Of a stretch of 64,000 nucleotides of DNA, positions 4,712-45,900 are shown in pieces. This stretch comes from Minisyncoccota bacterium. GTDB lineage: Bacteria; Patescibacteriota; Minisyncoccia; Phycocordibacterales; UBA9973. Location: NCBI GenBank assembly GCA_041659205.1, contig JBAZYS010000002.1, positions 87,806-151,805 of the forward strand. Reading direction: 5' to 3'. The notes below the pieces were generated by a model. It made no database searches. It was given only the letters and a program-made list of their open reading frames with translations, and was not told the DNA's origin. Made by a program: the position numbers and the translations under genes. Each line of letters starts with the position of its first letter. The first letter of the stretch is position 1.

Positions 4712-5051
4712 TTTCTAAAATAGACACATCTGTTTCGACTTTTTTAAAAATAAAAACACCGCTAAGGGGCGCCGGCAAACTTTCTACATACTTAATAAGT
4801 ATAGAATATAGAAGTCTCCTTAGGGAATTCCTTTTTACTGCGAGTTTAGCAATACTTTTAGGGACGATAACAGAAATACGTGGGGATAAAGAGTTTTGCG
4901 ATGAGCAGCTGGCTTCTGTGTTGCTCATAAAAAACTCTTTAGCCCCATGTATTATATATTTAAAAGTTAAATTGAGAGAATTAATAAACTTACCTTCTTT
5001 AAAGATTTTTTCTACTGCCTTTTTATCGGCCCTATTTTTTTTAGGAAGCAT
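4677..5051 (-). CDS. rnpA: ribonuclease P protein component
   Basis: Basic ~120-aa protein immediately downstream of rpmH. RnpA-like RRLLY/KR-rich signature. Confidence 0.8.
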   Translation of the reverse strand: MLPKKNRADKKAVEKIFKEGKFINSLNLTFKYIIHGAKEFFMSNTEASCSSQNSLSPRISVIVPKSIAKLAVKRNSLRRLLYSILIKYVESLPAPLSGVFIFKKVETDVSILENEVKTIFSKIR

Positions 5052-8310: not shown

Positions 8311-10860
8311 TTATTGTTGATTTATTGTAAAGTTTGTTTTTGTTTCACCTCGGTTAAAAACTGTGTCATAAGAAATTATTTTTAATTCATTAATGTTTTG
8401 TAAATTTTCTATTTCTCTTCCCGTGAAAGAGAAATTAAAAGGTGCTTCTTTTGTTTCTAAATATATATCATTTATAAATATGTCTATTTTTTGTAAAGGA
8501 TAAATTCCAGAATTAGAAATTTTTAAATTTATTTTCTGATCAAGGAAATAATTTGTTGTACTATTTGGTTCAATAATTGTGACCTTTGGTTGATTCGCAC
8601 TAGTATGAACATCATCCATTAAAACAGGCTTTTCGCTCCAGGTTGTTACTGGGTATTTTCCTTTGTTCTGTGCCCACCAATTTTGGACAGGTATTTCCCA
8701 GTGGTTAAATTGAGAATCATTTTCTGGATTAGTTGGTGTAGGTCCTGAAATATCATTTTTATTTACCCAATATAATATTGAGTGGACATTTGTTATTATT
8801 TTTTCTTGCAAGGTTTCTCTAGGAGTAAATTCTGTTGCTAGTTTCCCCGATATTTTATCTATGAAAAAATTTTCACTTCCCAACCACTGTCCGCGAAGGG
8901 ATGGTTTTATTTTTGTTATATCAGTTTCAGTGTCAGGCTTTTCAAAACTTTCATTTGGTAGAGTATTTAGTGCCTCACTAATAAATTTATTCCAAATTGG
9001 ACCTGCAACAGCAGCACCACCTTTCTTCATTGGAGTATTTTCATTATTTCCTGCCCAAACACCGACAACAATAGAAGGTGTGTACCCAATAGTCCAAGCA
9101 TCCTTACTGTTGTTTGTCGTTCCTGTTTTTACTGCAACATTTCTTCCAGCTATATGAAGAACTGAGTTTGCTCCGAAGGTAGGGATTCGCGCACTATTGT
9201 CTGACAAAATATCTGAAATAGTTAGGGCAGAATTTTTTGGCAAAACTTCTTCAGTCCTTGGTTGAAATTCTTCTAAAACTTTTCCGCTTAAATCTTCAAT
9301 TTTTAAAATTCCAGTATATGGATTTCTCGCACCACTATTTGCAAAGACCCCATAAGCGGAAGTCATATCCAAGAGAGATACTTCTCCACCTCCAATAACA
9401 AGAGTCAAACCATATTGCCCGATATTTTTTAAGGTGGTTATTCCCATATCTTCTGCTGTTTTTAAAGAAGCAGGAAGGCCAGCTAAATAGAAAAGTTTTA
9501 CAGCTGGAATATTTATTGATTGAGCGAGTGCATCCCTTAGATTCATTGGACCACGAAACTTTCCATCAAAGTTGTCAGGCATGTAGCAGTCCTTTTGATT
9601 GTGTCCAGGATATGCCTTACCATAAGCGTCGCAGGTGCTCTGAAATTCAGTCGGTAGGTCAAAGAGTACAGTCTCAGGAGTAAACCCCTTATTGAAGGCC
9701 GTAGCGTAAATAAAAGGCTTAAAAGAGGAGCCTGGTTGTCTTGCGGCAGTGGTTATATTGAAATTACCATCAATTGTTTTATCAAAATAATCTCTTGATC
9801 CAACCATTGTTAATATTTGCCCAGTTTTAGGGTCTATTGCAATCAATCCTGCATTTTTTCCATTCCAATCTTTTTCGTTTTTCAGTGCTCCTTCTTTTAC
9901 AATCTGTTCTCCTTTTGCCTGTAAATCTGCATCGATAGTTGTGATAACCTTAAGTCCACCATTGTCCACCATTCCTGTACCATATTTTTGTTCCAAATAA
10001 TCTTTTATAAAAAAAACAAAGTGTGCAGCTTTTATTCCCATCGTTGCTTGGGGAGTGAAAATGACTATTTCCTTTTTTGCTTTGTCGTGTTCTTCTTGGG
10101 TGATGAACTTAAGTTCCAACATTCTTGAAAGGACTAAATTTTTTCTGTTTTCTAGTTTATCTTTATTTTTTCCATACGGAGAAAGCATTGTAGGGGACTG
10201 GGGGATGGCCGCTAAATAGGCTGACTCTGCTAAACTTAGGTCCAGTGCATCTTTGTTAAAGTAAGTTTTACTAGCTGCTTCTATTCCATAAACGTTTCCC
10301 CCATAAGGAACTTCATTTAAATAAGCTTCTAAAATTTTTTCCTTTGACATTGCTCTGTCAATTTTTATTGCAAGAACCCATTCTTTTATTTTTCTGATAT
10401 ATTTAGCCAAACCACTGCTTTGAGTTAAAAGCGTATTTTTTACTAATTGTTGAGTAATTGTTGATCCCCCACCACCAATTCCAAAACCAAATATATTTGA
10501 AAGGAGGGCGCGGACAATAGAAGTTATTCTTATTCCACCATGAGTATAAAATTCAGAATCTTCAATTGCGACAGTGGCGTTTTTTATATTAAAACTCATT
10601 TGTTCAAAAGTAACGTCCGTTCTTTTTGTGTCTTGGTGTATATCATAAAGTAGAATTTTTCCCGTGCGGTCATAAATTTGGGTAGAGTTCACAACTTTTC
10701 TGTCTCCAAAAGAGTGAAAGTCAGGAATTTTTAAAGAAAATAAAAGAACTATAGTAATTCCAAGTGCAAAAATAAAAATACCACTACTTAGTAGTAGTAT
10801 GTTTTTCATCATTTTCTTATTTTTTGAAATATGTTTTAGTTTTTTAAAGGTGTTTCTCAT
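8311..10860 (-). CDS. class A penicillin-binding protein 1A (glycosyltransferase + transpeptidase)
   Basis: N-terminal TM helix. GT51 motifs (EDxxFYxHxG-like, GGSTITQQL). Transpeptidase SSFKPF (SxxK) and KTGTT motifs. Confidence 0.9.
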   Translation of the reverse strand: MRNTFKKLKHISKNKKMMKNILLLSSGIFIFALGITIVLLFSLKIPDFHSFGDRKVVNSTQIYDRTGKILLYDIHQDTKRTDVTFEQMSFNIKNATVAIEDSEFYTHGGIRITSIVRALLSNIFGFGIGGGGSTITQQLVKNTLLTQSSGLAKYIRKIKEWVLAIKIDRAMSKEKILEAYLNEVPYGGNVYGIEAASKTYFNKDALDLSLAESAYLAAIPQSPTMLSPYGKNKDKLENRKNLVLSRMLELKFITQEEHDKAKKEIVIFTPQATMGIKAAHFVFFIKDYLEQKYGTGMVDNGGLKVITTIDADLQAKGEQIVKEGALKNEKDWNGKNAGLIAIDPKTGQILTMVGSRDYFDKTIDGNFNITTAARQPGSSFKPFIYATAFNKGFTPETVLFDLPTEFQSTCDAYGKAYPGHNQKDCYMPDNFDGKFRGPMNLRDALAQSINIPAVKLFYLAGLPASLKTAEDMGITTLKNIGQYGLTLVIGGGEVSLLDMTSAYGVFANSGARNPYTGILKIEDLSGKVLEEFQPRTEEVLPKNSALTISDILSDNSARIPTFGANSVLHIAGRNVAVKTGTTNNSKDAWTIGYTPSIVVGVWAGNNENTPMKKGGAAVAGPIWNKFISEALNTLPNESFEKPDTETDITKIKPSLRGQWLGSENFFIDKISGKLATEFTPRETLQEKIITNVHSILYWVNKNDISGPTPTNPENDSQFNHWEIPVQNWWAQNKGKYPVTTWSEKPVLMDDVHTSANQPKVTIIEPNSTTNYFLDQKINLKISNSGIYPLQKIDIFINDIYLETKEAPFNFSFTGREIENLQNINELKIISYDTVFNRGETKTNFTINQQ

Positions 10861-12258: not shown

Positions 12259-12374
12259 ATTTTTTTTAATTTAAATTTTTAATAAGCGACCAAAAACAAA
12301 CGCTATCTAATTTATTCTTTTGTAACAAAATCCAAAAGGATTGGCAATAGCAAATGTGGATAACCTAACTATAG

Positions 12375-12470
12375 AAATATAGTCTTTTAAAAAGCATTGC
12401 GACCAGCTACCGAGCGAGTATAGCAAATTTTCAGCAGAAAATTATGTGCGGTTTTTAAAAGACTATATTT
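12375..12470 (+). repeat. GC-rich miniature repeat family 2, copy 1, enclosed by a 19-bp perfect inverted repeat
   Basis: Core 12394..12451 (GCATTGCGACCAGCTACCGAGCGAGTATAGCAAATTTTCAGCAGAAAATTATGTGCGG) shares AATTTTTCAGCAGAAAAATAT and a GC-rich hairpin with the copies at 54148 and 62386. Flanks AAATATAGTCTTTTAAAAA and TTTTTAAAAGACTATATTT are perfect inverted repeats; the right one overlaps the ruvC stop. Confidence 0.7.
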
Positions 12471-12958
12471 TTATAGTTTTGCCCTTTTAAATGTGCAAAA
12501 GCTGTAATAGCGATGGCAATAGCATCCAATTCATCGTCTGACTTTTTAGAATTATCTATATCCACTAATATTTTTACCATTTTTATTATTTGTTCTTTAT
12601 TTGCTTTTCCATAACCCGTGGTAGCTATTTTTATTTGAGGGGGGGAGGCTTCAAATATTTTTAATCCAGCATTTGTGGCTTCATAAATTACTACCCCGCG
12701 TGCTTCGGCGACGTGCATGACTGTTTTATGATTAGTAGTTAAAAATAAAGTTTCTATCGAAAGAACATCAGGTTTGTATTTTTTTATTATTTTTTTTACT
12801 TCTTCACCGATTAAAAGTAATCGTTCATTAAATTCTAATTTGGCAGAAGTTTTAAAGCATTCTGAAAAAATTACAGCTTCTTTTTTATCACCTTGTTTTT
12901 TCTCTAAGACCGCGACACCGAGGCGTTCATATCCTGGATCTATTCCTAAAATTATCAT
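12455..12958 (-). CDS. ruvC: crossover junction endodeoxyribonuclease RuvC
   Basis: MIILGIDPGYERLGVAVLE with RNase-H-like fold catalytic Asp/Glu. 167 aa. Confidence 0.9.
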   Translation of the reverse strand: MIILGIDPGYERLGVAVLEKKQGDKKEAVIFSECFKTSAKLEFNERLLLIGEEVKKIIKKYKPDVLSIETLFLTTNHKTVMHVAEARGVVIYEATNAGLKIFEASPPQIKIATTGYGKANKEQIIKMVKILVDIDNSKKSDDELDAIAIAITAFAHLKGQNYKNIVF

Positions 12959-13125
12959 AACTAAAGTTTAACATAATATGTGGATATTTTAATTGACTTT
13001 AGAAATATTAGTGATATATTAAACGTAATTTCCTCTCTGGATGTTTTTCTTTGAGAGGGTGTTCCTTTCAAAGATTCTGGAGATCCACCACAACCAGGGC
13101 CTAAAAGCCCTAAGCAGGAGGATTC

Positions 13126-15318: not shown

Positions 15319-15420
15319 ACCAAGAATAAAGTTTTTGTCGGTACGGATTTTTTGAAGCTTAAAAAATCCTGAAATTCTCAGCTCGTCAGCTTCGAAACCC
15401 CTTAAAAACTTTTTCTTGGT
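15319..15420 (+). repeat. intergenic palindromic repeat family 1, copy B, enclosed by a 17/18-bp inverted repeat
   Basis: Core 15340..15403 (GGTACGGATTTTTTGAAGCTTAAAAAATCCTGAAATTCTCAGCTCGTCAGCTTCGAAACCCCTTAAAAAC). Flanks ACCAAGAATAAAGTTTTT and AAAAACTTTTTCTTGGT. It sits at the 3' end of pilB. ORF-track ORF 15220..15435 is a translation of this element. Confidence 0.8.
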
Positions 15421-17159: not shown

Positions 17160-19619
17160 ATGCTTGAAGTAAAAAAAGAGAACAAAAAAACATTGGTATT
17201 ACTGGATGCCCATGCAATCATTCATCGTGCTTATCATGCTCTCCCTGAATTTATGTCTAGTAAGGGTGAACCGACTGGCGCACTTTATGGACTTTCTAGT
17301 ATGCTGATGAAAATAATTACTGAGTTGAAGCCCGATTATATTGTTGCTTGTTATGATTTACCCCACAAAACTTTTAGGCATGATGCTTATGAGGGGTACA
17401 AGGCTGGACGTGCAAAAACTGAGGATGCCCTAATTCTACAGCTAAAAAATTCTCGCCAGATTTTCGAGGGTTTTGGTATTCCAATGTATGATGCTATTGG
17501 TTTCGAGGCAGATGATGTTTTGGGAACAATTGTAGAAAAATATAAAAAAGATAAATATTTAAATATTATTATTGCCTCAGGAGATATGGACACGATGCAA
17601 TTAGTCGACGATAAAAAAGTTCAAGTTTATACTTTGAAAAAAGGAATTAACGATACCATTTTATATGACGAAGATGCGGTGGTAAACCGTTTTCATTTTA
17701 AACCTAAATTTTTACCAGACTATAAGGGCCTTCGTGGCGATCCATCGGACAATATTATCGGCATTAAGGGAATAGGGGAAAAGACGGCTGAAATACTAAT
17801 CACAAATTTTGGAACAATAGAAGAAATTTACAAAAAAATCAAAAAAGATGAGGAGGCTTTCAAAAAAGCAGGCATTAGTCCTCGAATGATTGAGTTGCTT
17901 AAAAACAATGAAGAAGAGGCTATGTTTTCAAAAACCCTAGCGACGATTCGAACTGATGCCCCAATTGGCTTTGAAATACCCACAAAGACTTTTTGGGAGA
18001 GTGCGGACTTAAAAAAAATAGAACAAGTTTTCACCACTTTTGAATTTAGGAGTTTGTTCGGACGTCTTAAAAATTTCTTTGGAAATAATACAGAAAAACT
18101 TGAGAAGAAAGATTCTTTGCCCTACGACGGGCTGCAAAATTCTTCTTCTCAAGTTTTTATGGGACCTCATGACGGGTTGCAGAATCTTTCTTCTCAGATT
18201 TCCCCTAAAAAGTTACAAGAAGCGAGTATTGCTTTGTGGTTAATAAATTCGGATATTTCAAATCCAAAATTGGAAGATGTGTTGATGTTTGCAAATACAG
18301 ATTCTTTTGAAGTAGCTTATGATTATATTTTTAAAAAATTAAAAGAAAACAATTTAGAAAAAGTATATGAAGAAATTGAAAAACCCATCATTCCTATAGT
18401 GAGAGAGATGGAAGACTATGGGATTTTGATAGATAAAAAGTATTTTGAAAAACTGTCAAAAGAATATCATACCGAGTTAGATATTTTAACTAAAAGAATA
18501 TACAAGGAGGCGGGCACAGAGTTTAATATTAATTCTCCTAAGCAGTTGGGTGAAGTTATTTTTGGTAAAATGGGGATACTTCCTCCTGGAAAAAGTAAAA
18601 CAAAAAAAAATGCGAGTGGGGGATTTTCTACGAAAGTTTCTGTTTTAGAAGATCTTGAAGAAGATAATCCAATTATAAAAGAAATATTAGCTTATCGAGA
18701 ATTACAAAAATTACTTTCCACCTATATAGATGTTATACCAAAGATGGTGGGAGATGATGGTCGCCTCCATGCTAAATTTTTGCAAAACGGGACAACAACA
18801 GGTAGATTTTCTTCCCAAGATCCCAATTTACAGAATTTACCAATTAAAACAGAGCTTGGTAAAAGAATTCGAGGCGGATTTATCGCTCAAAAGGGTTACA
18901 AGCTTGCTGCTTTTGATTATAGTCAGATTGAGTTGCGAGTGGCCGCAATGCTCTCCGGAGACAAAAAGATGACCCAAATATTTCGCGAGGGAAAAGACAT
19001 TCATGCTGGAGTAGCCTCTTTCGTTTTTAATGTTCCTCTTGAACAGGTTGATTATGAAATGCGTCGGAAAGCAAAAGTAATAAATTTTGGAATTATTTAT
19101 GGTATGGGAGTTTCTGCTTTGCGGAAAAATCTAGGGGGAGCACGTGAAGAAGCCCAAAAGTTTTATGATAATTATTTTAATCAATTTTCAGGTGTTCGGG
19201 ATTATTTAGAAAATGTTAAAAAATATGCGATGCAGCATCATTTTACAGAAACACTTTTTGGCCGAAAGAGATATTTTCCTAATATAAATTCTAGAATTCC
19301 TTTTTTGAAAAATATGGCGGAACGTACTGCCACAAATGCACCCGTTCAAGGTACGGCAACAGCAGATATAATCAAGTTAGCTATAAGGTATGGGGAAGAG
19401 GATTTAAAAAATGCCGGACTTCTGGAAAAGACTCATTTAGTGCTTCAAATTCATGATGAGCTTGTGTATGAAATTGAAGAAAAAGAATTAAAAAAAGCTG
19501 AAAAGATAATAAAAAATGCGATGAACGGAGTTCTAGAGAGGTCTTTTTTACACTACAAAACGGATATTCCGCTTGAAATCCACTCTGGTTCCGGGGACAA
19601 TTTTATGGAAGTTAAGTGA
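17160..19619 (+). CDS. polA: DNA polymerase I (5'-3' exonuclease + polymerase domains)
   Basis: N-terminal 5' nuclease (LLDAHAIIHRAYHAL) and C-terminal pol A family motifs (RRKAKVINFGIIYG, QIHDELV). Start moved to the ATG at 17160 (MLEVKK...); the ORF-track start at 17043 overlaps pilB. Confidence 0.9.
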   Translation: MLEVKKENKKTLVLLDAHAIIHRAYHALPEFMSSKGEPTGALYGLSSMLMKIITELKPDYIVACYDLPHKTFRHDAYEGYKAGRAKTEDALILQLKNSRQIFEGFGIPMYDAIGFEADDVLGTIVEKYKKDKYLNIIIASGDMDTMQLVDDKKVQVYTLKKGINDTILYDEDAVVNRFHFKPKFLPDYKGLRGDPSDNIIGIKGIGEKTAEILITNFGTIEEIYKKIKKDEEAFKKAGISPRMIELLKNNEEEAMFSKTLATIRTDAPIGFEIPTKTFWESADLKKIEQVFTTFEFRSLFGRLKNFFGNNTEKLEKKDSLPYDGLQNSSSQVFMGPHDGLQNLSSQISPKKLQEASIALWLINSDISNPKLEDVLMFANTDSFEVAYDYIFKKLKENNLEKVYEEIEKPIIPIVREMEDYGILIDKKYFEKLSKEYHTELDILTKRIYKEAGTEFNINSPKQLGEVIFGKMGILPPGKSKTKKNASGGFSTKVSVLEDLEEDNPIIKEILAYRELQKLLSTYIDVIPKMVGDDGRLHAKFLQNGTTTGRFSSQDPNLQNLPIKTELGKRIRGGFIAQKGYKLAAFDYSQIELRVAAMLSGDKKMTQIFREGKDIHAGVASFVFNVPLEQVDYEMRRKAKVINFGIIYGMGVSALRKNLGGAREEAQKFYDNYFNQFSGVRDYLENVKKYAMQHHFTETLFGRKRYFPNINSRIPFLKNMAERTATNAPVQGTATADIIKLAIRYGEEDLKNAGLLEKTHLVLQIHDELVYEIEEKELKKAEKIIKNAMNGVLERSFLHYKTDIPLEIHSGSGDNFMEVK
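18099..18197 (+). mobile_element. in-frame palindromic insertion element within the polA inter-domain linker (encodes ...EKKDSLPYDGLQNSSSQVFMGPHDGLQNLSSQ...)
   Basis: A perfect 16-bp inverted repeat TGAGAAGAAAGATTCT (18101..18116) pairs with AGAATCTTTCTTCTCA (18181..18196). The right half is internally duplicated (18117..18153 resembles 18160..18197). A 51-nt stretch (aligned without gaps) is 45/51 identical to uvrA 24768..24822. Confidence 0.7.
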
Positions 19620-21979: not shown

Positions 21980-24208
21980 ATGTCTTATGATAGTATAAGA
22001 AATATGCTCAAAAATCAAGGAAAACATGAGAATATATTTAAATTACACAACCCCTTTCAACCCGCAGGAGATCAACCCGCAGCTATTTTAGGGCTTGTGG
22101 AGGGACTTAAAAAGGGAATGAAAAAGCAGACATTGCTCGGTGCCACAGGCACAGGGAAGACTTTTACCATGGCAAATGTGATTACCCAATATAACAAACC
22201 GACTCTAGTGATAGCGCACAATAAAACACTTGCAGCTCAGCTTGCTCAAGAGTTCCGTGAATTTTTTCCCGAATCCGCAGTGCATTATTTTGTTTCATAT
22301 TATGATTATTACCAGCCAGAAGCCTACATGCCTGCATCAGATACTTATATTGAAAAAGATGCTTCGATAAACAAAGAGATAGATAGACTTCGACATGCTA
22401 CAACCCAAGCACTCTTAACCAGAAGAGACGTTATAATCGTCGCATCTGTTTCTTGTATTTATGGTTTGGGAAGTCCTGCAGAATATGAAAAAGTAAATCT
22501 TAAATTAGAGCTTGGAATGAAGCTCGATAGACTAACCTTAATGAAAAAGTTAATTGGAATTCATTTTGAACGTACAAATGCAGATTTGAATCCTGGGCAG
22601 TTTAGATCTATCGGTTCAAGGGTAGAATTTATGCCGGTTTCAGAAATTATTATGTATCAAGTGGAATTTTCGGGAACAAAAATTTCTCAAATAACAAAAA
22701 TTGACCCGATTTCTTCACAAATAATTAAACAGGAAGAAAATGTTTTTATTTTCCCTGCAAAACATTTTATTACCGAAGAAGGAAAGAAGAAAAAAGCTTT
22801 GGTGGAAATAAAAAAAGAATTAACAAAGCAATTAAAAAAATTTGAAAAAGAAGGAAAACTTTTAGAAGCTGAGAGAATAAAAAGGCGTACAAACTATGAC
22901 CTCGCAATGATAAAAGAGGTGGGGTATTGCAACGGTATCGAAAATTATTCTCGTCATTTGTCTGGCAAAAAAGAAGGTGAACCACCAGAAACATTATTTT
23001 CTTATTTTCCTCATACGAAAGAAGGAAAAGCAGATTTTTTAACTATCGTTGATGAGTCACACGTAACCTTGCCTCAACTTCAGGGTATGTATGCAGGCGA
23101 TGCTTCTCGTAAAAATACTCTTGTGGAATATGGTTTTCGTTTACCTTCAGCAAAAGATAATAGACCTTTAAAATACGAAGAATTTAGCAAAGTTATTGGT
23201 CCTATAATCTATACAAGTGCGACTCCGAGCGAGCAAGAACGCAGTCAGAGTGAACAAATTGTGGAGCAAATAATTCGTCCTACCGGACTCATTGATCCAG
23301 AGACGATAGTTCGACCAGTGAGTGCTGATAAGGCAAGTGATCAATCTTTTGCTCAGGATCCTGCTTTGCAACGTCACCATTCACAAAAGTCTGCCCCCTT
23401 GTCTTATCCTGGTCAAATTCAAGATTTTATTAAAGAAACAGAACTAACTATCAAAAAAGGTTTTCGAGTCCTTGCCACGACATTGACAAAAAAAATGGCC
23501 GAAGACCTTTCTGTGTATCTAAAAGATAAAAAAATAAAAGCAGAGTATCTACACAGTGATATTAAAACGATGGACCGGATTAAAATTCTTACTCAGTTTC
23601 GAAAAGGGGACTTTGATGTTTTAGTAGGGGTAAATTTACTTCGTGAAGGACTCGATTTGCCAGAGGTGGCATTGATAGGGATCCTCGATGCTGATAAGGC
23701 AGGATTTTTGCGTTCAGAAACGTCATTAATTCAGACCATAGGAAGAGCAGCCCGCAACAGCGAAGGCAAAGTGATTCTTTATGCAGACATCATGACCGAT
23801 GCAATGGAATATGCTTTAAGTGAGACGGCACGTCGCAGAAACATACAAATTGCTTATAATAAAAAAAATGGAATCACTCCGAAAACAATTATCAAAAAAA
23901 TTAAAGACATTACAGAAGAGCTGGAGAGCGAACATGGAAAAGTTGTGAATGCAGAGCTTGCATTAGACGTCGAATTGTTTAAAAAAGCATTTGCTAAAGA
24001 TAAAAGTAATAAAGGAAAAAATGAATCAGACTCAATAAAGAATTTATTATTGTCAGATGAGGAACGCAACCTCGTTGTTTATAAAAAAATAATAACCATC
24101 AAGGAAAAAGAAATGAACAAAGCGGTAAAAGAGTTAGATTTTGAAACTGCTGCAATTCTCCGTGACGAGATAGTAGTACTTAAAACAAGATTGGAAATTA
24201 AAGAATAA
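21980..24208 (+). CDS. uvrB: excinuclease ABC subunit B
   Basis: Walker A GATGTGKTFT. Helicase motifs. C-terminal UVR domain. Contains an extra ~30-aa segment at 23320..23410. Confidence 0.95.
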   Translation: MSYDSIRNMLKNQGKHENIFKLHNPFQPAGDQPAAILGLVEGLKKGMKKQTLLGATGTGKTFTMANVITQYNKPTLVIAHNKTLAAQLAQEFREFFPESAVHYFVSYYDYYQPEAYMPASDTYIEKDASINKEIDRLRHATTQALLTRRDVIIVASVSCIYGLGSPAEYEKVNLKLELGMKLDRLTLMKKLIGIHFERTNADLNPGQFRSIGSRVEFMPVSEIIMYQVEFSGTKISQITKIDPISSQIIKQEENVFIFPAKHFITEEGKKKKALVEIKKELTKQLKKFEKEGKLLEAERIKRRTNYDLAMIKEVGYCNGIENYSRHLSGKKEGEPPETLFSYFPHTKEGKADFLTIVDESHVTLPQLQGMYAGDASRKNTLVEYGFRLPSAKDNRPLKYEEFSKVIGPIIYTSATPSEQERSQSEQIVEQIIRPTGLIDPETIVRPVSADKASDQSFAQDPALQRHHSQKSAPLSYPGQIQDFIKETELTIKKGFRVLATTLTKKMAEDLSVYLKDKKIKAEYLHSDIKTMDRIKILTQFRKGDFDVLVGVNLLREGLDLPEVALIGILDADKAGFLRSETSLIQTIGRAARNSEGKVILYADIMTDAMEYALSETARRRNIQIAYNKKNGITPKTIIKKIKDITEELESEHGKVVNAELALDVELFKKAFAKDKSNKGKNESDSIKNLLLSDEERNLVVYKKIITIKEKEMNKAVKELDFETAAILRDEIVVLKTRLEIKE

Positions 24209-24314: not shown

Positions 24315-26981
24315 ATGAAAACAGAGAAAAATATAGAAAAAATAACAGTAAAAGGGGCACGGACTCATAACCTAAAGAATATAAACGTCGAAATGCCAAG
24401 GAATAAAATGGTAGTTATTACTGGTGTTTCGGGATCTGGAAAGTCATCCCTTGCTTTCGATACTATTTTTGCGGAGGGACAGCGCAGGTATATAGAGTCT
24501 CTCTCTTCTTATGCGCGACAATTTTTAAACCAAATGCCGAAACCAGACGTGGATGAGATTACGGGGCTTTCGCCAGCAATTTCTATTGACCAAAAATCAC
24601 GTTCCAATAATCCTCGTTCAACAGTAGCAACGATTACAGAGATTTATGATTACCTCCGAGTGATGTATGCCCGTATCGGGCATCCGCATTGCCCCGAGTG
24701 TGGAGAAGAAATTAAAAAACTTTCAAATGAAGAAATTTTAAATTTTGTTTTAGAAAAAATAAAGAATTTAGAGAAGAAGAATTTTTTGCCCTACGACGAT
24801 CTGCAGAATTCCTCTTCTCAAGGTCTTAAGAATGGTAAAAGAAAAATTATGGGGGTGGAGTTTGATGAAACCCAAATTAGTATTTTTTCTCCTATTGTTC
24901 GTGGGCGGAAAGGGGAATATTATCAATTACTTTATGATTTACTTGGAAAAGGTTTTGCGGAAATCCGTCTCGATGGAGTGATAAAGAAACTTCGCGAGCA
25001 AATTACCCTTTCTAAAAACAAAAAACATAATATAGATATAATGGTGGATACTTTTGCGGTACATGAATTTAAGGATAGTCCTGAAGTAAGTCGGATGAGA
25101 CTTTCCGAAGCCTTAGAGCATGCTTTAATTGAGTCCGATGGTTTGGTGACGATTAAAATTGCAGATGATGAATTTATTATGTCCGCAAAGTTTGCTTGTA
25201 AGAATGATGGATTTTCTTTTCCAGAAGTTGAGCCTAGACTTTTTTCTTTCAACTCTCCTTATGGAGCATGTCCGACTTGTAATGGGCTCGGGTCAAAATA
25301 TTTTATGGGTGATGAGCCTTGCGATACTTGTCATGGAGCACGCTTGCGTCCTGAAGCTTTAAATGTTTTTCTGGAGGCAGATGTCGTGGGGGAGAAGGGC
25401 AAAGTCAAAAAGAGTAAAGTAAATATTTTAGACCTTGCTTCACTTTCAATAAAAGACGCACATGATTTCTTCAAGAATTTAAAACTTACAGATCAAGAAA
25501 AAGAAATATCTGTTCCCGTGGTGCGAGAGATTGAAGCTCGGTTACAATTTATGTTAGATGTTGGACTTGATTATTTGCAACTTTCACGCAAAGCCAACAC
25601 TCTCTCTGGAGGAGAAGCGCAGCGTATTCGCCTCGCCTCCCAGCTCGGCTCAAGGCTTGTGGGAGCACTTTACGTGCTTGATGAGCCGACGATAGGGCTT
25701 CATCAGCGAGACAATGATAGACTCATAAAAACCTTACAAAACCTTCGTGATTTAGGGAATACAATATTAATTGTGGAGCATGACGAAGACACGATTTATG
25801 CCTCAGATTATATTGTAGATATTGGACACAAAGCCGGAGTACACGGCGGAGAAGTTATTGTTTCTGGCTACCTTGAAGATTTATTAACGGCAAAAAAGAA
25901 TACAAATAATTCTCGAACGCTTGCCTATTTAAGAGAAGAAGCGAAAATTGAAATTCCTAAAAAGCGACGAGAGGCAAAAGGAGTTCTACGGATTGCTGGT
26001 GGAAATATTTTTAACATAAATAATTTAAATGTAGAAATACCTCTTGGGGTGATGACATCTATCACCGGAGTATCCGGTTCTGGGAAAAGTTCTTTTATGT
26101 ATGAAATTCTTTATAAAAATCTTCAAGCTCGTTATGAAAGAAAATACCGCACTGCCAAAGTTTTTAATTGTTCTTCATTTTCTGGAACCGAATATTTATC
26201 TCGCGCTATTTTAATTGATCAATCACCGATCGGCCGGACTCCTCGTTCCAACGTGGCTACTTATACTGGCGCGTTTACCCATATTCGAGATATCTTTGCT
26301 ACGACCGAGGAAGCAAGACTCCGTGGATGGAAAGCAAATCGTTTTTCTTTTAACGTAAAAGGTGGACGTTGTGAAGCTTGCGAAGGAAATGGAGAAATAG
26401 CGGTAGAGATGCATTTCTTGCCGACCGTTTATGTTACTTGTGATGTTTGTGATGGTAAACGTTTTAATAAAGATACCCTCACTGTAAAATATAAAAAGAA
26501 AAATATTTATGAAGTGCTTCGCATGACCGTAGAAAATGGATTAATCTTTTTTAAAGATATTCCTTCTATTTCAGACAGACTTCAAACACTTATGGATGTA
26601 GGCCTTGGTTATCTTGAGCTTGGACAATCCGCAACCACGCTTTCAGGGGGAGAAGCTCAGAGAGTAAAAATATCTAGTGAACTTTATCGTCCACACTTAG
26701 AGAAAACCATTTACCTTTTGGATGAACCGACGGTTGGTTTACATTATGATGATGTTCATAAACTTTTAGAAGTCTTAAATAAATTAGTTTCTAAAGGGAA
26801 TACCGTTGTACTCATTGAACACAATTTGGACATTGTGAAAAGCTCAGATTATATAATAGATATTGGTCCTGAGGGAGGAGTAAATGGTGGTAATATAGTA
26901 GCTAAGGGGACACCAGAAGAGGTGGCTAATAATGCTAAAAGTTATACTGGAAAATATCTCAAAAAGGTTTTACGCAAATAG
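24315..26981 (+). CDS. uvrA: excinuclease ABC subunit A
   Basis: [12 protein letters not shown]-terminus. Two ABC ATPase modules ([20 protein letters not shown]) and zinc fingers. Start set at ATG 24315 ([19 protein letters not shown]); the ORF track gives 24294. Confidence 0.95.
24768..24822 (+). mobile_element. in-frame palindromic insertion element within uvrA (encodes ...[17 protein letters not shown]...), homologous to the polA insertion
   Basis: GAGAAGAAGAATT (24771..24783) and AATTCCTCTTCTC (24807..24819) form a 12/13-bp inverted repeat around TTTTGCCCTACGACGATCTGCAG. It is near-identical at the nucleotide level to polA 18099..18153. Confidence 0.7.
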
Positions 26982-26985
26982 AAAT

Positions 26986-28329
26986 ATGTCAAATCCATTA
27001 AATATACAATCATATAAAATCGCCTCATCGGCGATCCGCCGTAGAGGCGGAAATTTAAAACTTCCTGACAAGCCCGGTGTGTACTTTTTCTTAAAAAATG
27101 GAGAAATTTTATATATTGGTAAAGCAACATCACTCAAAGATAGAGTAAAAAGTTATCTTGGTAAAGATCTAATAGAAACAAGAGGTCCAATTCTTGTGGA
27201 TATGGTTTTCAAGGCGGATAAAATTGATTGGCAGGAGACTGACAGCGTACTTGAAGCATTGATACTTGAGGCAAATTTAATTAAAAAATATCAGCCTAAA
27301 TACAATACAAAAGAAAAATCAGATAAAAGTTTTAATTATGTTTGCATAACGAAGGAAAAATTACCTAAAGTAATCATTAAGAGAGGGAAAGAGATAAAAA
27401 ACTTTACCAAACAAAAATTTTCTCAGGTCCTCGGAAAAAATCCCCAGACCATTCAAAAATCTTTGTTTGGCAAAGTCTTTGGTCCATACCCTAATAGTTC
27501 TCAACTTCGAGAAGCTTTAAAAATAGTAAGAAGAATTTTCCCGTTCTTGGACGACAAGAGTAAAAATTATCTTGAATTTTACAAACAAATAAATTTAGTA
27601 CCAGATTTGGATGATAAAAAATTGTATTTGCAAAATATTCAAAACATTAAATTGTTTTTTGAAGGTAAAAAGAAAAAAGTTTTAAAAAATTTACAGAAAG
27701 AAATGAATGCATATTCTAAATTGCATGAATTTGAAAAGGCAGGAGAAGTAAAAAGACAAATTTTTGCACTTAAACATATTAATGACGTAGCTTTAATAAA
27801 AAACAGCCCCGCTTCTCATAATTCTTTCTCACTACGTACTGCCAAGCAGAATTCCTCGCTTGAAAAAATTACAAGAAGTGGGGTCTTCCGAATTGAAGCT
27901 TATGACATAGCCCACATGGGTGGTAAAAACATGGTTGGGGTTATGACTGTGGTGGAAGATGGGGAAGTGGCAAAAAGTGAATACAAAAAATTTAAGATAA
28001 GAACCCAAAGTGATGCAAATGATACAGGTGCGTTAAAAGAAGTGTTAGAAAGGCGTCTAACACATACAGAATGGCCTTATCCTAGTTTAATCGTTGTGGA
28101 TGGTGGGATAGCTCAAATAAATGCCACAAAAAAGGTATTGGCTAATTTGAAAATAAATATTCCCATAGTATCAGTCTTAAAAGATGAACGACATAAACCA
28201 AAAGCTATTATGGGAGAGAAGAATTTTGGTTTAAAATATGAGAGAGAGATTTTACTTGCAAATAGTGAAGCGCACAGGTTTGCTATTGCTTATCATAAAA
28301 ATATGCGTAACAGAAACTTTTTAAAATAA
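26986..28329 (+). CDS. uvrC: excinuclease ABC subunit C (short form lacking the C-terminal HhH region)
   Basis: GIY-YIG N-terminus (GVYFFLKNGEILYIGKATSLKDRVKSY). UVR-like helix. RNase-H-like endonuclease region (RIEAYDIAHMGG). Start set to ATG 26986, not the overlapping 26932. Confidence 0.85.
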   Translation: MSNPLNIQSYKIASSAIRRRGGNLKLPDKPGVYFFLKNGEILYIGKATSLKDRVKSYLGKDLIETRGPILVDMVFKADKIDWQETDSVLEALILEANLIKKYQPKYNTKEKSDKSFNYVCITKEKLPKVIIKRGKEIKNFTKQKFSQVLGKNPQTIQKSLFGKVFGPYPNSSQLREALKIVRRIFPFLDDKSKNYLEFYKQINLVPDLDDKKLYLQNIQNIKLFFEGKKKKVLKNLQKEMNAYSKLHEFEKAGEVKRQIFALKHINDVALIKNSPASHNSFSLRTAKQNSSLEKITRSGVFRIEAYDIAHMGGKNMVGVMTVVEDGEVAKSEYKKFKIRTQSDANDTGALKEVLERRLTHTEWPYPSLIVVDGGIAQINATKKVLANLKINIPIVSVLKDERHKPKAIMGEKNFGLKYEREILLANSEAHRFAIAYHKNMRNRNFLK

Positions 28330-28802
28330 TGAAAAAAGAAAACGTTTTAATCTTACATAATATACGAAGCGTCTCCAACGTCGGTGCGATGTTTCGTACG
28401 GCAGACGCAGCCGGAATAAATAAAATTTATTTGACTGGTTACACCCCAGCACCGCTTGATCGTTTCGGTAGGAAAAGAGGAGACTTGGCAAAGTCAGCAC
28501 TCGGTGCTGAAGAATTTGTGCCCTGGGAACAAAAGAAAAGTATTTCTGCACTACTTACTAAATTAAAGAAGGAAAATTTTTTAATTATTGGCATAGAGCA
28601 AGACAAAAAGTCTATTGATTATAAAAAGGTAAAAATTAAACAAAAGAATGCATTCTTGGTGGGTGAAGAGGTGGCTGGAATTTCTAAAGAAAATCTAAAA
28701 AAGTGCGATGTTATTGCTGAAATACCAATGCGTGGGAAAAAAGAATCCTTAAATGTATCTGTGGCGCTGGGGATCGCTTTATTTAGAATATGTAACTTAT
28801 AA
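28329..28802 (+). CDS. SPOUT-superfamily RNA 2'-O-methyltransferase (TrmH/SpoU family)
   Basis: SpoU motifs: LVGEEVAGIS, AEIPMRGKKESLNVSVALGIALF. Confidence 0.8.
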   Translation: MKKENVLILHNIRSVSNVGAMFRTADAAGINKIYLTGYTPAPLDRFGRKRGDLAKSALGAEEFVPWEQKKSISALLTKLKKENFLIIGIEQDKKSIDYKKVKIKQKNAFLVGEEVAGISKENLKKCDVIAEIPMRGKKESLNVSVALGIALFRICNL

Positions 28803-28895
28803 TGTCCGCATAAAATTTTGCTGAATTTTTGCTCAAGACTCGGCCCGTCGGCCTCCGTAGCTATTATAAATTTCATATTCTAAATTATTGGATAA

Positions 28896-28999
28896 GATAA
28901 AGAATAAAGTTTTTAAGGGGTTTCAAAGCTGACGAGCTGAGAATTTCAGGATTTTTTAAGCTTCAAAAAATCCGTACCGACAAAAATTTTATTTTTTAT
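28896..28999 (-). repeat. intergenic palindromic repeat family 1, copy C (reverse-complement orientation)
   Basis: The reverse complement of 28910..28978 reads GGTACGGATTTTTTGAAGCTTAAAAAATCCTGAAATTCTCAGCTCGTCAGCTTTGAAACCCCTTAAAAAC. Imperfect AT-rich inverted flanks. It lies between the convergent 3' ends of trmH-like and mutM. Confidence 0.8.
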
Positions 29000-29956: not shown

Positions 29957-30817
29957 ATGTTAATGAAAAGATTACGATTTATATTATTTATTTTTTCAAT
30001 ATTTTTCCTGGTGCCTCTTTCAAAGAGCCAAGCTAGTGTTGCCGCGCCTATTAAAATTTTATTAGTTCCAGGGCATGATGATGAAGTTTGGGGAGCAAAA
30101 TATAGGAATGTAAAAGAGGCAGATATGAATTTGGCAGTAGCTACCCAGATTTATAATCTCTTAAAGAAAGATAAAAGATTTGATGTCTATGTTACTCGTG
30201 ACAATAATGGTTATACAAAAGATTTTGCAGATTATTTCCCTGCACAAAGAGATAAAATTTTAGCTTTTGAACAAAATGCTAAAAAAATAATGAATAGTAA
30301 TATTTCTAGTGGTAATTTTGTTCAGAAAGAGAACGCACCACATCACACCGTGAGTGAAGACATTGCCTTACGTTTGTATGGTTTTAATAAATGGGCGAAT
30401 GAAAATAAAATAGATGCAGTAGTTCATTTTCATTTTAATGATTATCCGCGTTCCAATAGCCAAAAAATTGGCAAGTACAAAGGATTTGCCATCTATATGC
30501 CAGATGGGCAATTTGTAAATTCTAGGGAAAGTGGACAGCTCGCCGCTAATATTTTTACCCAGTTGCATAAAAAATATGCATCCAGTGACTGGAAACCAGA
30601 AGCAGGAGGACTTGTACCAGACCAAAAGCTCATTGCTATTGGTGCGAATAATACATTGAATGCTTCCGTGCGCTCTGTTCTAATAGAATATGGATATGTT
30701 TATGAAAAGAAATTTAGAACAAAGGCTGCGCGTCTTTCCGCTTATAAAAACATGGCAAGTCTTACCTCAACAGGAATAAAAAATTATTTTTTCCCCAAAA
30801 AAGTTAGCACAAAATAA
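29957..30817 (+). CDS. secreted N-acetylmuramoyl-L-alanine amidase (Amidase_3 family)
   Basis: Signal peptide. LLVPGHDDEVWGAKY...YVTRDNN matches the amidase_3 zinc-binding core. Confidence 0.8.
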   Translation: MLMKRLRFILFIFSIFFLVPLSKSQASVAAPIKILLVPGHDDEVWGAKYRNVKEADMNLAVATQIYNLLKKDKRFDVYVTRDNNGYTKDFADYFPAQRDKILAFEQNAKKIMNSNISSGNFVQKENAPHHTVSEDIALRLYGFNKWANENKIDAVVHFHFNDYPRSNSQKIGKYKGFAIYMPDGQFVNSRESGQLAANIFTQLHKKYASSDWKPEAGGLVPDQKLIAIGANNTLNASVRSVLIEYGYVYEKKFRTKAARLSAYKNMASLTSTGIKNYFFPKKVSTK

Positions 30818-30923
30818 ATAAAAAGATTTTTGCCGGTACGAATTTTTTGAAGCTTAAAAAATTCTGAAATTCTCGGCTCGTCAGCCTCGAAACCCCTTAA
30901 AAACCTTTTTATTTATTTTGTAC
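30807..30923 (+). repeat. intergenic palindromic repeat family 1, copy D, enclosed by a 19-bp inverted repeat that overlaps both convergent stop codons
   Basis: Core 30838..30904 (GGTACGAATTTTTTGAAGCTTAAAAAATTCTGAAATTCTCGGCTCGTCAGCCTCGAAACCCCTTAAAAAC). Flanks GCACAAAATAAATAAAAAG and CTTTTTATTTATTTTGTAC. The left flank contains the amidase stop and the right flank the ruvA stop. Confidence 0.8.
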
Positions 30924-31532: not shown

Positions 31533-31784
31533 ATGCCAATAACACAATCAGCTAAAAAAGCAATCCGAAGTTCCCTTCGCAAGAAGGCCTTTAATGATGG
31601 ACGTAAGAAAATAATGAAGGAGGTAATCAAAAAGATTGAGAAAATTGCTAAAACCGACAAGGCTGAAGCTGCAAAAATGCTTTCTTCTGCTTTCCAAGCT
31701 ATAGATAAATCTGCACAAAAAGGTGTTATTAAGAAAAATAACGCTGCTCGTAAGAAATCTCGTTTATCAAAGTTGGTCAAATAA
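31533..31784 (+). CDS. rpsT: 30S ribosomal protein S20
   Basis: MPITQSAKKAIRSSLRKKAFN... Lys/Ala-rich 83 aa typical of S20. Confidence 0.9.
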   Translation: MPITQSAKKAIRSSLRKKAFNDGRKKIMKEVIKKIEKIAKTDKAEAAKMLSSAFQAIDKSAQKGVIKKNNAARKKSRLSKLVK

Positions 31785-31885
31785 AGAATAATATTTTTTT
31801 GGTACAGATTTTTTGAAGCTTAAAAAATCTTGAAGTTTGCTCGCCGTCGCTCGCAAAACCCCTTCAAAATAATATTCTTTATTTT
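31780..31885 (+). repeat. intergenic palindromic repeat family 1, copy E
   Basis: Core 31801..31866 (GGTACAGATTTTTTGAAGCTTAAAAAATCTTGAAGTTTGCTCGCCGTCGCTCGCAAAACCCCTTCAAAAT). Near-perfect inverted flanks AAATAAAGAATAATATTTT and AAAATAATATTCTTTATTTT. The left flank overlaps the rpsT stop. Confidence 0.8.
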
Positions 31886-41294: not shown

Positions 41295-44200
41295 TTATTG
41301 TAATGTAGTAGTCGTAGTTTTTTTGCCAGATGGTTGATCAATGACAGTCGTAGTTTTTTTACGGAAAGATTGATCATAGGTGTACTTAGTTAAATATACA
41401 AGTATAAGTACAAGAAGGAGAAGAAGGAGCCATCCGAATAAGTTTGTAGGGAAGAAACCAGCTCCGAAGACATTTGCGCCAAGGAAGTTAAGATTTGTTC
41501 CATCATTCCAAACTTGGGCTGAGACATTTGCACTTACTGATTGAGGCTGACCAGAAGGATCAATATAACTCAAAGTTGCAGGGAAGTTCAAATTTGTTCC
41601 AGCTTTTATGTTATCACGTACTCGTACTCTTACAGTGACTACTCCTTTACCATTTGCTCGAAGAGTTCCGAGGTTGAAGTATAGGGTATTACCAGAGATT
41701 GAGGGATTGCTTGGGTTTGAGAATAGATAATCTACTTCAAGAGGAAGATTCATTTGAAGAGTAAGGTTCGTGATTGAAGCATTCCCGATGTTTTGATAAC
41801 TCACTGTGTAATTTATTTCATCACCCGGTTTTGGCATGGTGTTATCAATCGTAGGAACGATTGGTTGGTTGCGGTCAACAGAAGAGGTGATTAAGACGAG
41901 GGAAGATGGGATAATAGGAGTTCTATTTGTTTGACCACCGACAGTTATTGTCTCAGTATCACTTGCAGAACCGAAAGCATTACTACAAGTTATTTCGTAA
42001 GTCTTACTTGAAGTTAAACTTCCAGTATAGAAGGAGCCTGGACCAATACTTTTTACTCCGGCCCAGCCGACAGATCCGCCTGACGCATTACATGAGGTTG
42101 CATTTGTGGTAATCCAGCGAACAGTTGCAGAACCATTGTAAGCTAGATTTGTTTGATCTGAATAAACTACTACAGTTGGCTGATTACTTATGATTTGTTG
42201 ATTATCTACATTAACAGTTGTAGTAGCATTTGCTTGCTGGCCACTACTGTTTGTACAAGTAATACCGAAGTTTGTTGCATTGGTTAAGTTACCTGTGTAG
42301 AAACTTCCAGAAGTACTTCTGTTTCCAGACCATCCGTTAGTACCATTATTGGCGGAACATGATGTCGCATTTGTAGAATTCCAAATTATTAATGAAGTTC
42401 CATTGTAAGGGACAGAAACTGGATTTGCATACATGGTAACAGTTGGGTATTGAGTTTGGTTGTTTACATATACTGAAGTAGAAGCATTTGCTTGCTGACC
42501 ACTACTATTTGTACAAACGATATCAAAGTTTGTTGTATAGGTTAAGTTTCCAGTATAGAAACTACCGGAAGTACTTTTACTTCCTGCCCATCCGTTTAAT
42601 CCATTTGTACCAGTACAGTAACTTGCGTTTGTAGAATTCCAAGTAACTAAAGAAGTTCCATTATAAGAAATAGAAGCTGGACTTGCGTACATGGTAACAG
42701 TTGGGTTTTGATTTTGATTATTTACATAAACAGTGGCATTGGCACTTGCTGATTGACCAGTGTTGTTTACGCAATTAATAACATATGTAGTTGTACCTTG
42801 TGGTACTACCACTCCTGATCCACTAATTGAGTTACTTCCTGTCCAATAAGCATTACATGAGGTTGCATTTTGGGAAGTCCAAGTAAGAGTAGAGTTACTA
42901 CCTTGCTGAATGCTTGCTGGGTTGGCAGTTAGTTGTACTGTTGGAGCTTGAGTTTGGTTTACGTAAACAGTTGCATTAGCACTTCCTTGCTGGCCAGCAC
43001 TGTTTACACAGTTAATAACATAAGTAGTTGTACCTTGTGGTACTACCACTCCTGATCCAGTAGTGTTTGTATTTGTAGTCCAGTAAGCATTACATGAGGT
43101 TGCATTTTGGGAAGTCCAAGTAAGAGTAGAGTTACTACCTTGCTGAATATTTGTTGGATTAGCAGTTAGTTGAACTGTTGGAGCTTGAGGATTGTAATTG
43201 AAACTAGCATTAACCGTACAATTTGAAGTAATTGCACCTGTGGTAAATGTGTTTCCATTTAAATATCCATTACAACCAGAAACATTATTTATTGAGTATC
43301 CTTGATTTGCAGTTATGTAAAAGGTTGCAGTATTTCCAGAATTAATTTGCTGAGAAGTAGGAGCGATTGATCCACCTGTTCCAGCATTTGTGGAGACGGT
43401 GAAAGTAGTAGGGGCGTTTGGCGCACAGATTGAACCGTTCCAAGAAGAACCATTTGCACATGACGAAGTAGCTGATTTTGTATCTAGAACCGTAGATCCA
43501 TTTCTAAGATTATATATTGTATATGGGTATCCAACATATACTAAAAGAGGGTATGTGTTATTTGCAGCAGTAGAAAGAGTCGCACCTGTGTTTCCATCTA
43601 TCAACATTGGATTTGTAGTATTTGCTGTCGTCCAAGTAGCGCCGGTAACAGTACAAGTGCTTGCACCGGAAGCGATGATACAGCTTGAAGGGGAAATAGT
43701 TAAATTTCCAGTTGCTGGGTTAGGAGGATTTTGTACAAAACTAGCATATACAGTACAAGCAGAATATATCGCGCCAGTATTGTATGTAGTAGCAGTAGTA
43801 ATGTTGTTCAACTGACTACCATTACAACCATAAACTGACCCAGTGTATCCAGAATTTGGAGTTACTGTGAAGTTTGTGGTGTTTCCTGAAACGACTTGCT
43901 GATTTGGGGGAGTAATGTTTCCACCTACGCCTGATCCTGTGGAGGTAACGGTGTAGGTAGAAGGGGCGTTAGGTGTAAAACTAGCATTTACAGTACAGAC
44001 AGCATTTATTGCACCAGTAGTGTATGTCGTAGGAGCTGTAATATTATTTAATGCAATACCATTACATCCAGAAACTGAACCAGTGTATCCGTAGTTTGGA
44101 GTTACTGTGAAGCTTGTAGTACTTCCTGCATTAACGTTCTGAGTTCCTAGGGGAGAGATAGTTCCGTTGTTGCCTGCGTTTGAAGTGACTGCGTAGGTAG

Positions 44201-45775: not shown

Positions 45776-45811
45776 CTAGCACGAAAGAAGCCAACTGCTT
45801 GGCTTTACGTA

Positions 45812-45900
45812 GGAAGCGAAAAGCTTTTACCTATTTTTTTATAAAAAATGTAAAAGGTATACTGTTCTCGTAGAGAAAGATTTCCTACTGAGGGCACAAA
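45812..45900 (+). repeat. conserved ~85-bp module downstream of tRNA-Arg, ending in a direct repeat of the tRNA 3' end (CCTACTGAGGGCAC)
   Basis: About 85% identical to 52636..52725. Contains AAAAGGTATACTGTTC (-10-like TATACT). The final 14 nt exactly repeat the 3' end of this locus's tRNA. Confidence 0.6.

Follow-up and report, generated by a model that had tools for sequence, protein, structure and literature searches.

An in-frame palindromic element in uvrA of a Minisyncoccota bacterium and its relatives in other repair genes

Results

The uvrA gene harbors a palindromic element

We analyzed a stretch of 64,000 nt from a Minisyncoccota bacterium, hereafter called the window (W), in which a 55-nt palindromic element resides within the reading frame of uvrA. 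All coordinates are window positions. The neighbors of uvrA are uvrB (21980-24208) and uvrC (26932-28329), and polA is located at approximately 17160-19619. The clade of the host is Paceibacterota/Nomurabacteria-like. The UvrA protein matched solved UvrA chains of the PDB with E = 0 and is 100% identical to P0001, which is named excinuclease ABC subunit UvrA and originates from a metagenome-assembled genome of Candidatus Paceibacterota. For comparison, syntenic loci of UvrA homologues were fetched and complemented by matches from two large pattern scans (L001, L003, etc.). The host gene and the parts of the element are as follows:

24315-26981, plus strand: uvrA host gene, annotated product of 888 aa; the open reading frame (ORF) starting with GTG at 24294 comprises 895 aa
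24690-24701, plus strand: first CxxC (TGC CCC GAG TGT, C133/C136) of the N-terminal zinc module, intact; the extra segment starts 19 residues downstream
24756-24854, plus strand: 33 codons (ORF aa 155-187) without counterpart in solved UvrAs, made up of the element and a clade-specific Lys-rich linker
24768-24822, plus strand: 55-nt palindromic element, uvrA copy, in the uvrA frame; found by an nhmmer profile of nine copies with E = 1e-18
24771-24783, plus strand: left arm GAGAAGAAGAATT
24777-24782, plus strand: direct repeat AAGAAT, first copy; the second copy starts 51 nt downstream
24784-24806, plus strand: loop TTTTGCCCTACGACGATCTGCAG, 23 nt; the inner stem GCCC/GGGC of the sister copies is broken here (GATC)
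24807-24819, plus strand: right arm AATTCCTCTTCTC, complementary to the left arm at 12 of 13 positions
24828-24833, plus strand: direct repeat AAGAAT, second copy

An inverted repeat with 12 matching positions out of 13, lying in frame in uvrA at 24768-24822, had been described by the initial annotation, and both its sequence and the quoted translation proved to be correct. By itself, such a repeat is at chance level, as approximately six repeats with arms of 13 nt, no more than one mismatch, and a loop of 3-60 nt are expected in the block-shuffled window. The RNA fold of the uvrA copy is also weak (-17.2 kcal/mol, z = -1.7), with 11 of 200 shuffled sequences folding equally well. Thus, it is not the bare inverted repeat that makes the uvrA element real, it is the homology of the element to a stretch of polA and to other copies.

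Copies of the element in polA and in related genomes

A blastn search within the window revealed a 52-nt stretch of polA (18102-18153), which is 86.5% identical to the uvrA copy (E = 1e-8) and 6.7 kb away from it. Degenerate patterns of 26 nt and 22 nt matched only the polA and uvrA sites within the window, while no match at all was expected. Besides the sister copy, the polA region (18094-18198) contains a partial tandem copy with a period of 45 nt, which encodes LPYDGLQNSSSQVFMGPHDGLQNLSSQ:

18094-18158, plus strand: sister copy in polA (core 18099-18153), the stem of which is lengthened by polA-specific AAAAA/TTTTT flanks; encodes EKLEKKDSLPYDGLQNSSSQ
18162-18198, plus strand: tandem partial copy (loop and right arm) after the polA copy, encodes GPHDGLQNLSSQ; profile match at 18169-18197 with E = 3e-4

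The assumption that the uvrA segment is one copy of a palindromic element was borne out by this polA sister and by seven further copies in related contigs. The segment belongs to a dispersed repeat family, whose nine distinct copies could be aligned without gaps. They reside in uvrA of W, L001, L003, L007, and L008, in polA of W, L003, and L010, and in one intergenic region of L003. Paralogous copies known so far are all located within a few kb of each other. The loop GCCCTACGACGGGC is almost invariant in the nine copies, which come from at least five genomes, and inverted termini of 13-25 bp (CTTGAGAAGAAGAATT / AATTCTTCTTCTCAAG) are present in the alignment.

The copies differ in the quality of their hairpins. 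Within the window the polA copy is the best preserved one, with a perfect outer stem of 16 bp and a strong fold (-30.2 kcal/mol, z = -5.9). A run of five T follows this hairpin, still within the gene. Stems of the sister copies comprise up to 25-28 pairs and reach -30 to -47 kcal/mol. The uvrA copy of W is the most decayed member, since only 17 of 29 Watson-Crick pairs were kept, compared to 23-28 in the other copies, and the inner GCCC/GGGC stem was lost. The intergenic copy of L003 (16413-16489) is situated directly 3′ of the amidase stop codon, between the convergent genes for amidase and ruvA, and is flanked by an A-run and a T-run. This succession of A-run, hairpin, and T-run resembles a bidirectional terminator; in W the same spacer holds a different element. 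At the uvrA site of L003, L007, and L008 two hairpins are present, the first of which was recognized in a profile search as a diverged family copy in reverse orientation.

Because CTGCAG and GAATTC lie adjacent in loop and arm, vector contamination was considered. It was excluded, as the element is in frame, variable in sequence, and present in independent assemblies from JGI, ENA, NCBI, and Logan. The size of the element and the uninterrupted frame ruled out an intein, an intron, and a programmed frameshift.

The stem is kept by paired changes

When a structure of 29 pairs was laid over the alignment of the nine copies, both sides had changed in 15 pairs, a number that none of 500 shuffles reached. 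Furthermore, 87% of the alignment cells pair, compared to 38-60% when the partner was slid by 1-3 columns. Examples of covariation are polA, where AAAAACTTGAGAAG / CTTCTCAAGTTTTT in W is replaced by GAGAAACCTGCGAAG / CTTCGCAGGTTTCTC in L010, and uvrA of L008 with GAATAAG / CTTATTC. The complementary flanks that continue the stem outside of the common 55-nt core are specific for each locus. The mismatches comprised 12 that form G·U on the sense RNA and 14 of the A·C type, which form G·U on the antisense strand only, and thus did not disclose any sense-strand bias. In this small sample, stem symmetry seems to belong to the DNA rather than to the mRNA. Selection on mRNA structure was also considered as a cause, and found no support in these small numbers.

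The insert is located in a variable linker of UvrA

HMMER alignments of the UvrA protein to 9gxk, 2r6f, 9ga5 (3zqj-type), and 3pih ended at residues 151-154 of the query (154 with 9gxk, approximately 151 with 2r6f) and restarted at residues 188-193. In the solved chains 9gxk and 2r6f, the parts aligned before and after the insert are directly contiguous, and the 33 residues between them thus lack a counterpart; the extra peptide that had been claimed relative to canonical UvrA does exist. With 9ga5 and 3pih, the alignment is resumed only beyond the extra segment. Since the segment downstream of the insert matches 3fpn_A, the "UvrA interaction domain", the insertion site is inside the UvrB-binding domain and, judging from the alignment to PDB chains, between a helix and a strand. 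This position is based on the chain alignments, as an AlphaFold2 model built with 26 close homologues had a mean predicted local distance difference test score of 35 and was unusable. The previous description of the site as being near the N-terminal zinc finger is correct insofar as it lies 19 residues past the first CxxC, while the UvrB-binding domain is the more exact location. Similarly, the statement that the ABC and zinc modules are left intact holds at the level of sequence motifs, i.e., for the CxxC pairs, the second CPTC, and both Walker A motifs. The element interrupts neither the uvrA nor the polA reading frame. With its two ABC modules, zinc modules, and UvrB-binding domain, the host protein corresponds to a class I UvrA. 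An insertion domain of approximately 115 aa found in solved class I UvrAs is missing from the protein and from all 119 close homologues; aa 335/336 (window approximately 25296-25300) align to residues 305 and 421 of 9gxk, and the distance between CPTC and CDTC is only 11 residues.

The initial annotation had suggested looking for length polymorphism among relatives. Indeed, in 120 sequences with 85-100% identity (query included), the segment from NF to MGVEW ranged from 22 to 62 aa. No insert was present in 43 sequences, 13 had short and 60 other long inserts, and four (query included) were of the LPYDGL type. Apart from the query, the set consisted of 119 UvrA clusters at 85-94% identity, three of which possess the element studied here. 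The 60 other long inserts are hairpins as well, and 34 of them bear the same arm signature. In a neighbor-joining tree calculated without the segment, filled and empty alleles were interleaved, though this tree is shallow and probably poorly resolved. On the DNA level, the site is empty in L011 and L004 and contains merely the arms, as a perfect short palindrome, in L013 and L012. Homologous arms enclose the LPYDGL core in W, L001, L003, L007, and L008, and other cores in L005 (SGLLQP...) and L006 (SGLTLPG...).

Compared to the nearest empty alleles, the insert of W has a length of 48 nt (16 codons), and the remaining approximately 17 extra residues are part of a Lys-rich linker common to the whole clade. 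The insertion, originally put at about 20 aa, is therefore real, and the part linked to the hairpin comprises 16 codons. Deletion between the two AAGAAT repeats would yield the EKKN-GKRK empty allele of relatives such as P0053, P0056, and P0094. By sequence comparison, the insertion site is a hypervariable linker within the UvrB-binding domain.

Further hairpin families

The family is one of several mini-hairpin families that populate polA, uvrA, uvrB, and uvrC of this clade. In comparisons of W with five syntenic relatives, each of these four genes contained 2-6 in-frame indel blocks, and no such blocks were found in T2SSE, the ABC-F protein, SpoU, the amidase, and others (genes at 15-35 kb of the window; a small sample). 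Tolerance, expression level, or local copying may underlie this concentration. One or two small indel blocks without evident hairpin potential were present in Fpg and a 221-aa protein. A hairpin scan of the window yielded 15 strong inverted repeats vs. 0-1 in shuffled sequences, and an Rfam scan of the window detected seven tRNAs only and no family that matches these hairpins. The main representatives in the window are:

23333-23401 (uvrB aa 452-474): 23-aa in-frame insert ASDQSFAQDPALQRHHSQKSAPL, shared with L003 and missing from L001, L004, L005, and L006
27397-27480 (uvrC aa 156-183): in-frame hairpin of another family, KNFTKQKFSQVLGKNPQTIQKSLFGKVF, with 25-nt arms that are 88% complementary
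3126-3229, 15325-15412, 28897-28999 (minus strand), 30809-30921, and 31779-31884: five copies of an intergenic family with a conserved core of approximately 60 nt, GGTACGGATTTTTTGAAGCTTAAAAAATCCTGAA...AAACCCCTT

The hairpin potential of the uvrB insert is moderate, amounting to -23 kcal/mol in W and to -30.6 kcal/mol (z = -4.2) in L003. The uvrC gene of W contains the insert FSQVLGKNPQTIQKSLFG (27397-27480), which recurs at a second uvrC site of L005; in L005, 46 nt are repeated with 91% identity at two uvrC sites. Another insert, HTRRHSHSVLEGKDLSGRSKDSSEYV, is shared by the uvrB gene of L004 and the uvrC genes of L003 and L004. In L004 this 80-nt in-frame element is 98.75% identical between uvrB (8696-8775) and uvrC (13000-13079), which points to recent copying. 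In uvrC of L003 and L004 it is enclosed by perfectly complementary arms of 22 nt and 20 nt, respectively, whose sequences differ. The polA genes of L001, L004, and L005 contain an insert (AEFSQVLG...) exactly where W has the LPYDGL copy; by peptide similarity only, it is akin to the uvrC insert.

In the four copies checked out of five, the cores of the intergenic family are enclosed by locus-specific inverted repeats of 19-27 bp that overlap gene ends. Additional copies of this family possibly exist at 12367-12478 and 28781-28885, and it also occurs in L001. An in-frame hairpin with 23-nt arms (91% complementary) lies in rnpA (4875-4953, minus strand, aa 33-59), where a Pfam alignment suggests approximately 15 extra residues in the product. 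Furthermore, an ORF of 1090 aa (41295-44567, minus strand) includes tandem repeats of approximately 250 nt at 42213-43189 and 43737-44128, and a 93-nt segment is repeated at 84% identity 3′ of two tRNA-Arg genes (45809-45900 vs. 52633-52725).

A probable local origin of hairpin arms

The intergenic family copy downstream of rpsT (31779-31884) is present in W only. Read by eye, because the downstream part was misaligned by MAFFT, its left arm is similar to the native L003 spacer (approximately 14 of 19 positions), while the right arm repeats the left one in inverted form. In the spacer between the amidase gene and ruvA, W and L003 hold different cores, and the arms include each genome's own amidase stop region and the complement thereof. 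Such a local origin of arms, read by eye in the rpsT case, would be a signature of template switching. The existence of arm-only and filled uvrA alleles is also consistent with an origin by template switching.

Discussion

The data suggest, with a probability of roughly 0.55, that the segment in uvrA is an old, decaying copy of a low-copy, lineage-specific in-frame repeat similar to the Rickettsia palindromic elements (RPEs), whose fate may be governed by template switching, slippage, and a selection filter. The hairpin would be a feature of the DNA that is copied between nearby sites, and its arms may be extended and re-homogenized by template switching during replication, i.e., by snap-back copying of the flank. 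It has been reported that template switching makes perfect hairpins in one event and that it homogenizes and expands the arms of inverted repeats (PMC10710096, PMC8604942, PMC13100816, PMC7202029). Paired changes could thereby arise without selection on the structure. Slippage between short direct repeats would remove the hairpin again, and selection would filter the outcomes for frame and tolerated position. In uvrA, the element may persist only because its length is a multiple of three bases, because it is free of stops in the frame used, and because the linker of the UvrB-binding domain in which it lies is probably dispensable and exposed at the surface. It would then be a passenger and not a functional part of UvrA. 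We infer this status from the amino-acid differences in the uvrA copy (4/18, compared to 3.6-9.6% in the rest of the gene) and from the loss of stem pairs in W. In polA, the inner arms arrived together with the element, so that an additional copying step is needed. Template switching from one hairpin to another one nearby, gene conversion, and transposition are conceivable ways for this step, which would have been ectopic.

A number of observations weigh against this interpretation. Template switching alone does not explain why the same non-palindromic loop occurs in polA, uvrA, and the spacer, and no target-site duplication could be defined. The copy number is very low, and apart from uvrA and polA the family was encountered in a single spacer, next to ruvA. 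Exact-pattern scans, which would miss degenerate copies, gave a single match in 185,579 species genomes and three among metagenome contigs, while viral contigs yielded nothing. At the protein level, 5-mers of the element's peptide are shared by no more than 28 clusters out of 5.8 billion. When host proteins of the peptide LEKKNSLPYDGLQNSSSQ were sought with a concatenated query of 54 aa, none of the 28 candidates matched at E ≤ 10, which shows only that the peptide is rare. Moreover, the genome is visible for 64 kb only.

The silent sites are a further point of this kind. Between copies, 2-11 nt of the 55-nt core differ, compared to 44-67% of the fourfold degenerate sites in the host genes. 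For instance, the fourfold-site divergence between W and L003 is 0.44 in uvrA and 0.59 in polA, and the core differs at six and two positions, respectively; between uvrA of W and L001 the values are 0.67 and eight. The binomial probability of so few core differences at the fourfold-site rate ranges from 1e-7 to 1e-18. Similarly, codons for the same amino acid differ in 1/14, 3/14, 3/14, and 2/18 cases within the element, compared to 35-55% in the rest of the genes. Hence it is the nucleotides of the element that are conserved, and not the peptide. A neutral, vertically inherited passenger should have decayed; therefore, the copies must be younger than the divergence of their hosts, homogenized, or constrained. 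The first may have come about when the same sites were filled anew or exchanged short tracts, the second by continual homogenization of the copies, and the third possibility is a constraint on the DNA or RNA sequence. No long recombination tract was visible around the element, as identity rises only at the element itself and the adjoining approximately 60 nt.

A farther-reaching idea, which we put forward with considerable reserve, is that the uvrA copy is a decaying member of a hitherto undescribed class of hairpin elements of approximately 50-80 nt in Patescibacteria. Such elements would need no transposase and would reach neighboring sites as well as other lineages by replication template switching. 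Each insertion would create an inverted copy of the flank instead of a direct duplication, so that the elements nest onion-like in locus-specific arms. The same permissive linkers of the repair genes polA, uvrA, uvrB, and uvrC would be reoccupied in frame, and the cores would be conserved at silent sites.

It is rather unlikely that the element is a functional cis-element, acting on the DNA or RNA level, that is shared by repair genes. According to this explanation it would be a binding or processing site for co-regulation, or the (homing) site of a hairpin-specific recombinase that puts it back at identical positions, and its in-frame state would be the price of an intragenic position. The explanation would account for a nucleotide conservation exceeding the silent-site conservation of the host genes, for the almost invariant loop, for stems kept by paired changes, and for the occupation of identical sites in genomes that have diverged almost to saturation at silent positions. 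In addition, every known site belongs to a repair gene or adjoins one (uvrA, polA, and the spacer at ruvA), but the region is a repair-gene cluster, in which local copying alone gives the same association. Furthermore, 43 of 120 close relatives lack the uvrA insert and 60 have unrelated loops, and in L001 the element is present in uvrA, while polA harbors a different family. The uvrA copy of W has lost 12 of 29 Watson-Crick pairs (seven, if G·U is counted as paired) as well as the inner stem. The lack of a sense-strand mismatch bias argues against selection on mRNA structure, there is no Rfam match, and a simple terminator scan flagged neither the uvrA nor the polA copy.

Still less probable is a classical non-autonomous transposon, either of the RPE type, of the repetitive extragenic palindromic (REP) type, or a miniature inverted-repeat transposable element (MITE), which is mobilized in trans by a transposase encoded elsewhere and whose arms are terminal inverted repeats. 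The inverted termini of 13-25 bp, the occurrence at unrelated loci in both orientations including one intergenic copy, and sister families with near-identical copies in two genes are what such a transposon would leave behind. RPEs, palindromic repeats that are inserted in frame in unrelated genes, provide a precedent (PMC10969869). Yet the arms beyond the shared core are locus-specific and probably derived from local sequence, the copy number is very low, and with approximately 55 nt the element is below the usual size range of MITEs. The 6-nt direct repeats AAGAAT flanking the uvrA copy are possible traces of a target-site duplication, but such duplications are not consistent, as other copies are flanked by inverted complements (AAAAA/TTTTT, AT/AT, GGGAGAAAC/GTTTCTCCC). 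No transposase was detected among 20 non-syntenic ORFs of the window that were tested, and the fetched loci contained none save for one weak Transposase_mut match in L013.

That a lineage-specific, low-complexity linker of UvrA contains an accidental inverted repeat is hardly conceivable, since, even though the bare repeat and its fold (z only -1.7) hardly exceed chance, this explanation is refuted by the homology to polA over 52 nt, the gap-free alignment of nine copies, the strong covariation, and the presence/absence polymorphism among close relatives.

The element shares features with several known systems. The Rickettsia palindromic elements RPE-1 to RPE-10 were reportedly described by Ogata and coworkers in 2000. 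Like these, the hairpins studied here are dispersed palindromic repeats lying in frame in unrelated housekeeping genes, where they lengthen the host protein by a peptide but do not disrupt it. Further common traits are the presence of several families per genome and a host-dependent bacterium with a small genome. RPEs, however, comprise approximately 100-150 bp, occur in tens of copies, and encode a conserved peptide, while this element has approximately 55 nt (48 nt of which were inserted), few copies, and an unconserved peptide. Its host belongs to the Patescibacteria and not to the Rickettsiales, and the element is likened to RPEs by its behavior; judging from size, copy number, and phylum, it is not a member of the RPE families. 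To our knowledge, it has not been reported for RPEs that the same site contains different cores in different genomes or that stems run into locus-specific flanks, both of which were seen here.

REP sequences, BIMEs (bacterial interspersed mosaic elements), and REPINs (REP doublets forming hairpins) are extragenic high-copy repeats with hairpins of 20-40 nt, which are mobilized by or linked to RAYT, the REP-associated tyrosine transposase. Hairpins of this size and inverted pairs, i.e., adjacent copies of opposite orientation as in uvrA of L003, L007, and L008, are found here as well, but the element is mostly intragenic and low in copy number, and no RAYT was seen in the DNA examined. With bacterial MITEs such as Correia/NEMIS, ERIC, and BOX (PMC10969869) the element has in common that it is short and non-coding, possesses terminal inverted repeats, and is sometimes intragenic with in-frame fusions. 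It differs from them in that no consistent direct target-site duplication and, among the 20 ORFs tested, no matching parent insertion sequence was found, by its smaller size, and by arms that probably derive in part from the local flank. In template-switch hairpins (PMC10710096, PMC8604942, PMC13100816; for quasipalindrome correction, PMC7202029), an inverted copy of the flank originates in one step and the arms are homogenized and expanded, which would match the locus-specific complementary flanks and the covariation of the element. Coding palindromes in the mitochondria of Nematomorpha (PMC6649704) are likewise stringent inverted repeats that lie within translated genes of a reduced genome. 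Both of their arms, however, code for conserved protein regions under amino-acid selection, whereas here the arms lie in a dispensable, variable linker.

In the literature, we found no description of in-frame palindromic elements in the candidate phyla radiation (CPR)/Patescibacteria. As far as we know, in-frame palindromic "selfish" DNA has remained a curiosity known mainly from Rickettsia and some organelles. The main value of the finding lies in the wider hairpin phenomenon and the unexplained conservation of silent sites, and less in this particular uvrA copy. If our interpretation is true, reduced genomes of unrelated lineages tolerate, and perhaps generate, hairpin DNA inside essential genes. 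The elements explain length variation of UvrA, UvrB, UvrC, and PolA between near-identical CPR relatives, which affects annotation, alignments, phylogenies, and structure prediction. They could also show how template switching makes and keeps palindromes and how peptides enter conserved proteins. Finally, the conservation at silent sites leaves room for a regulatory or recombinational role of the hairpins in repair genes.

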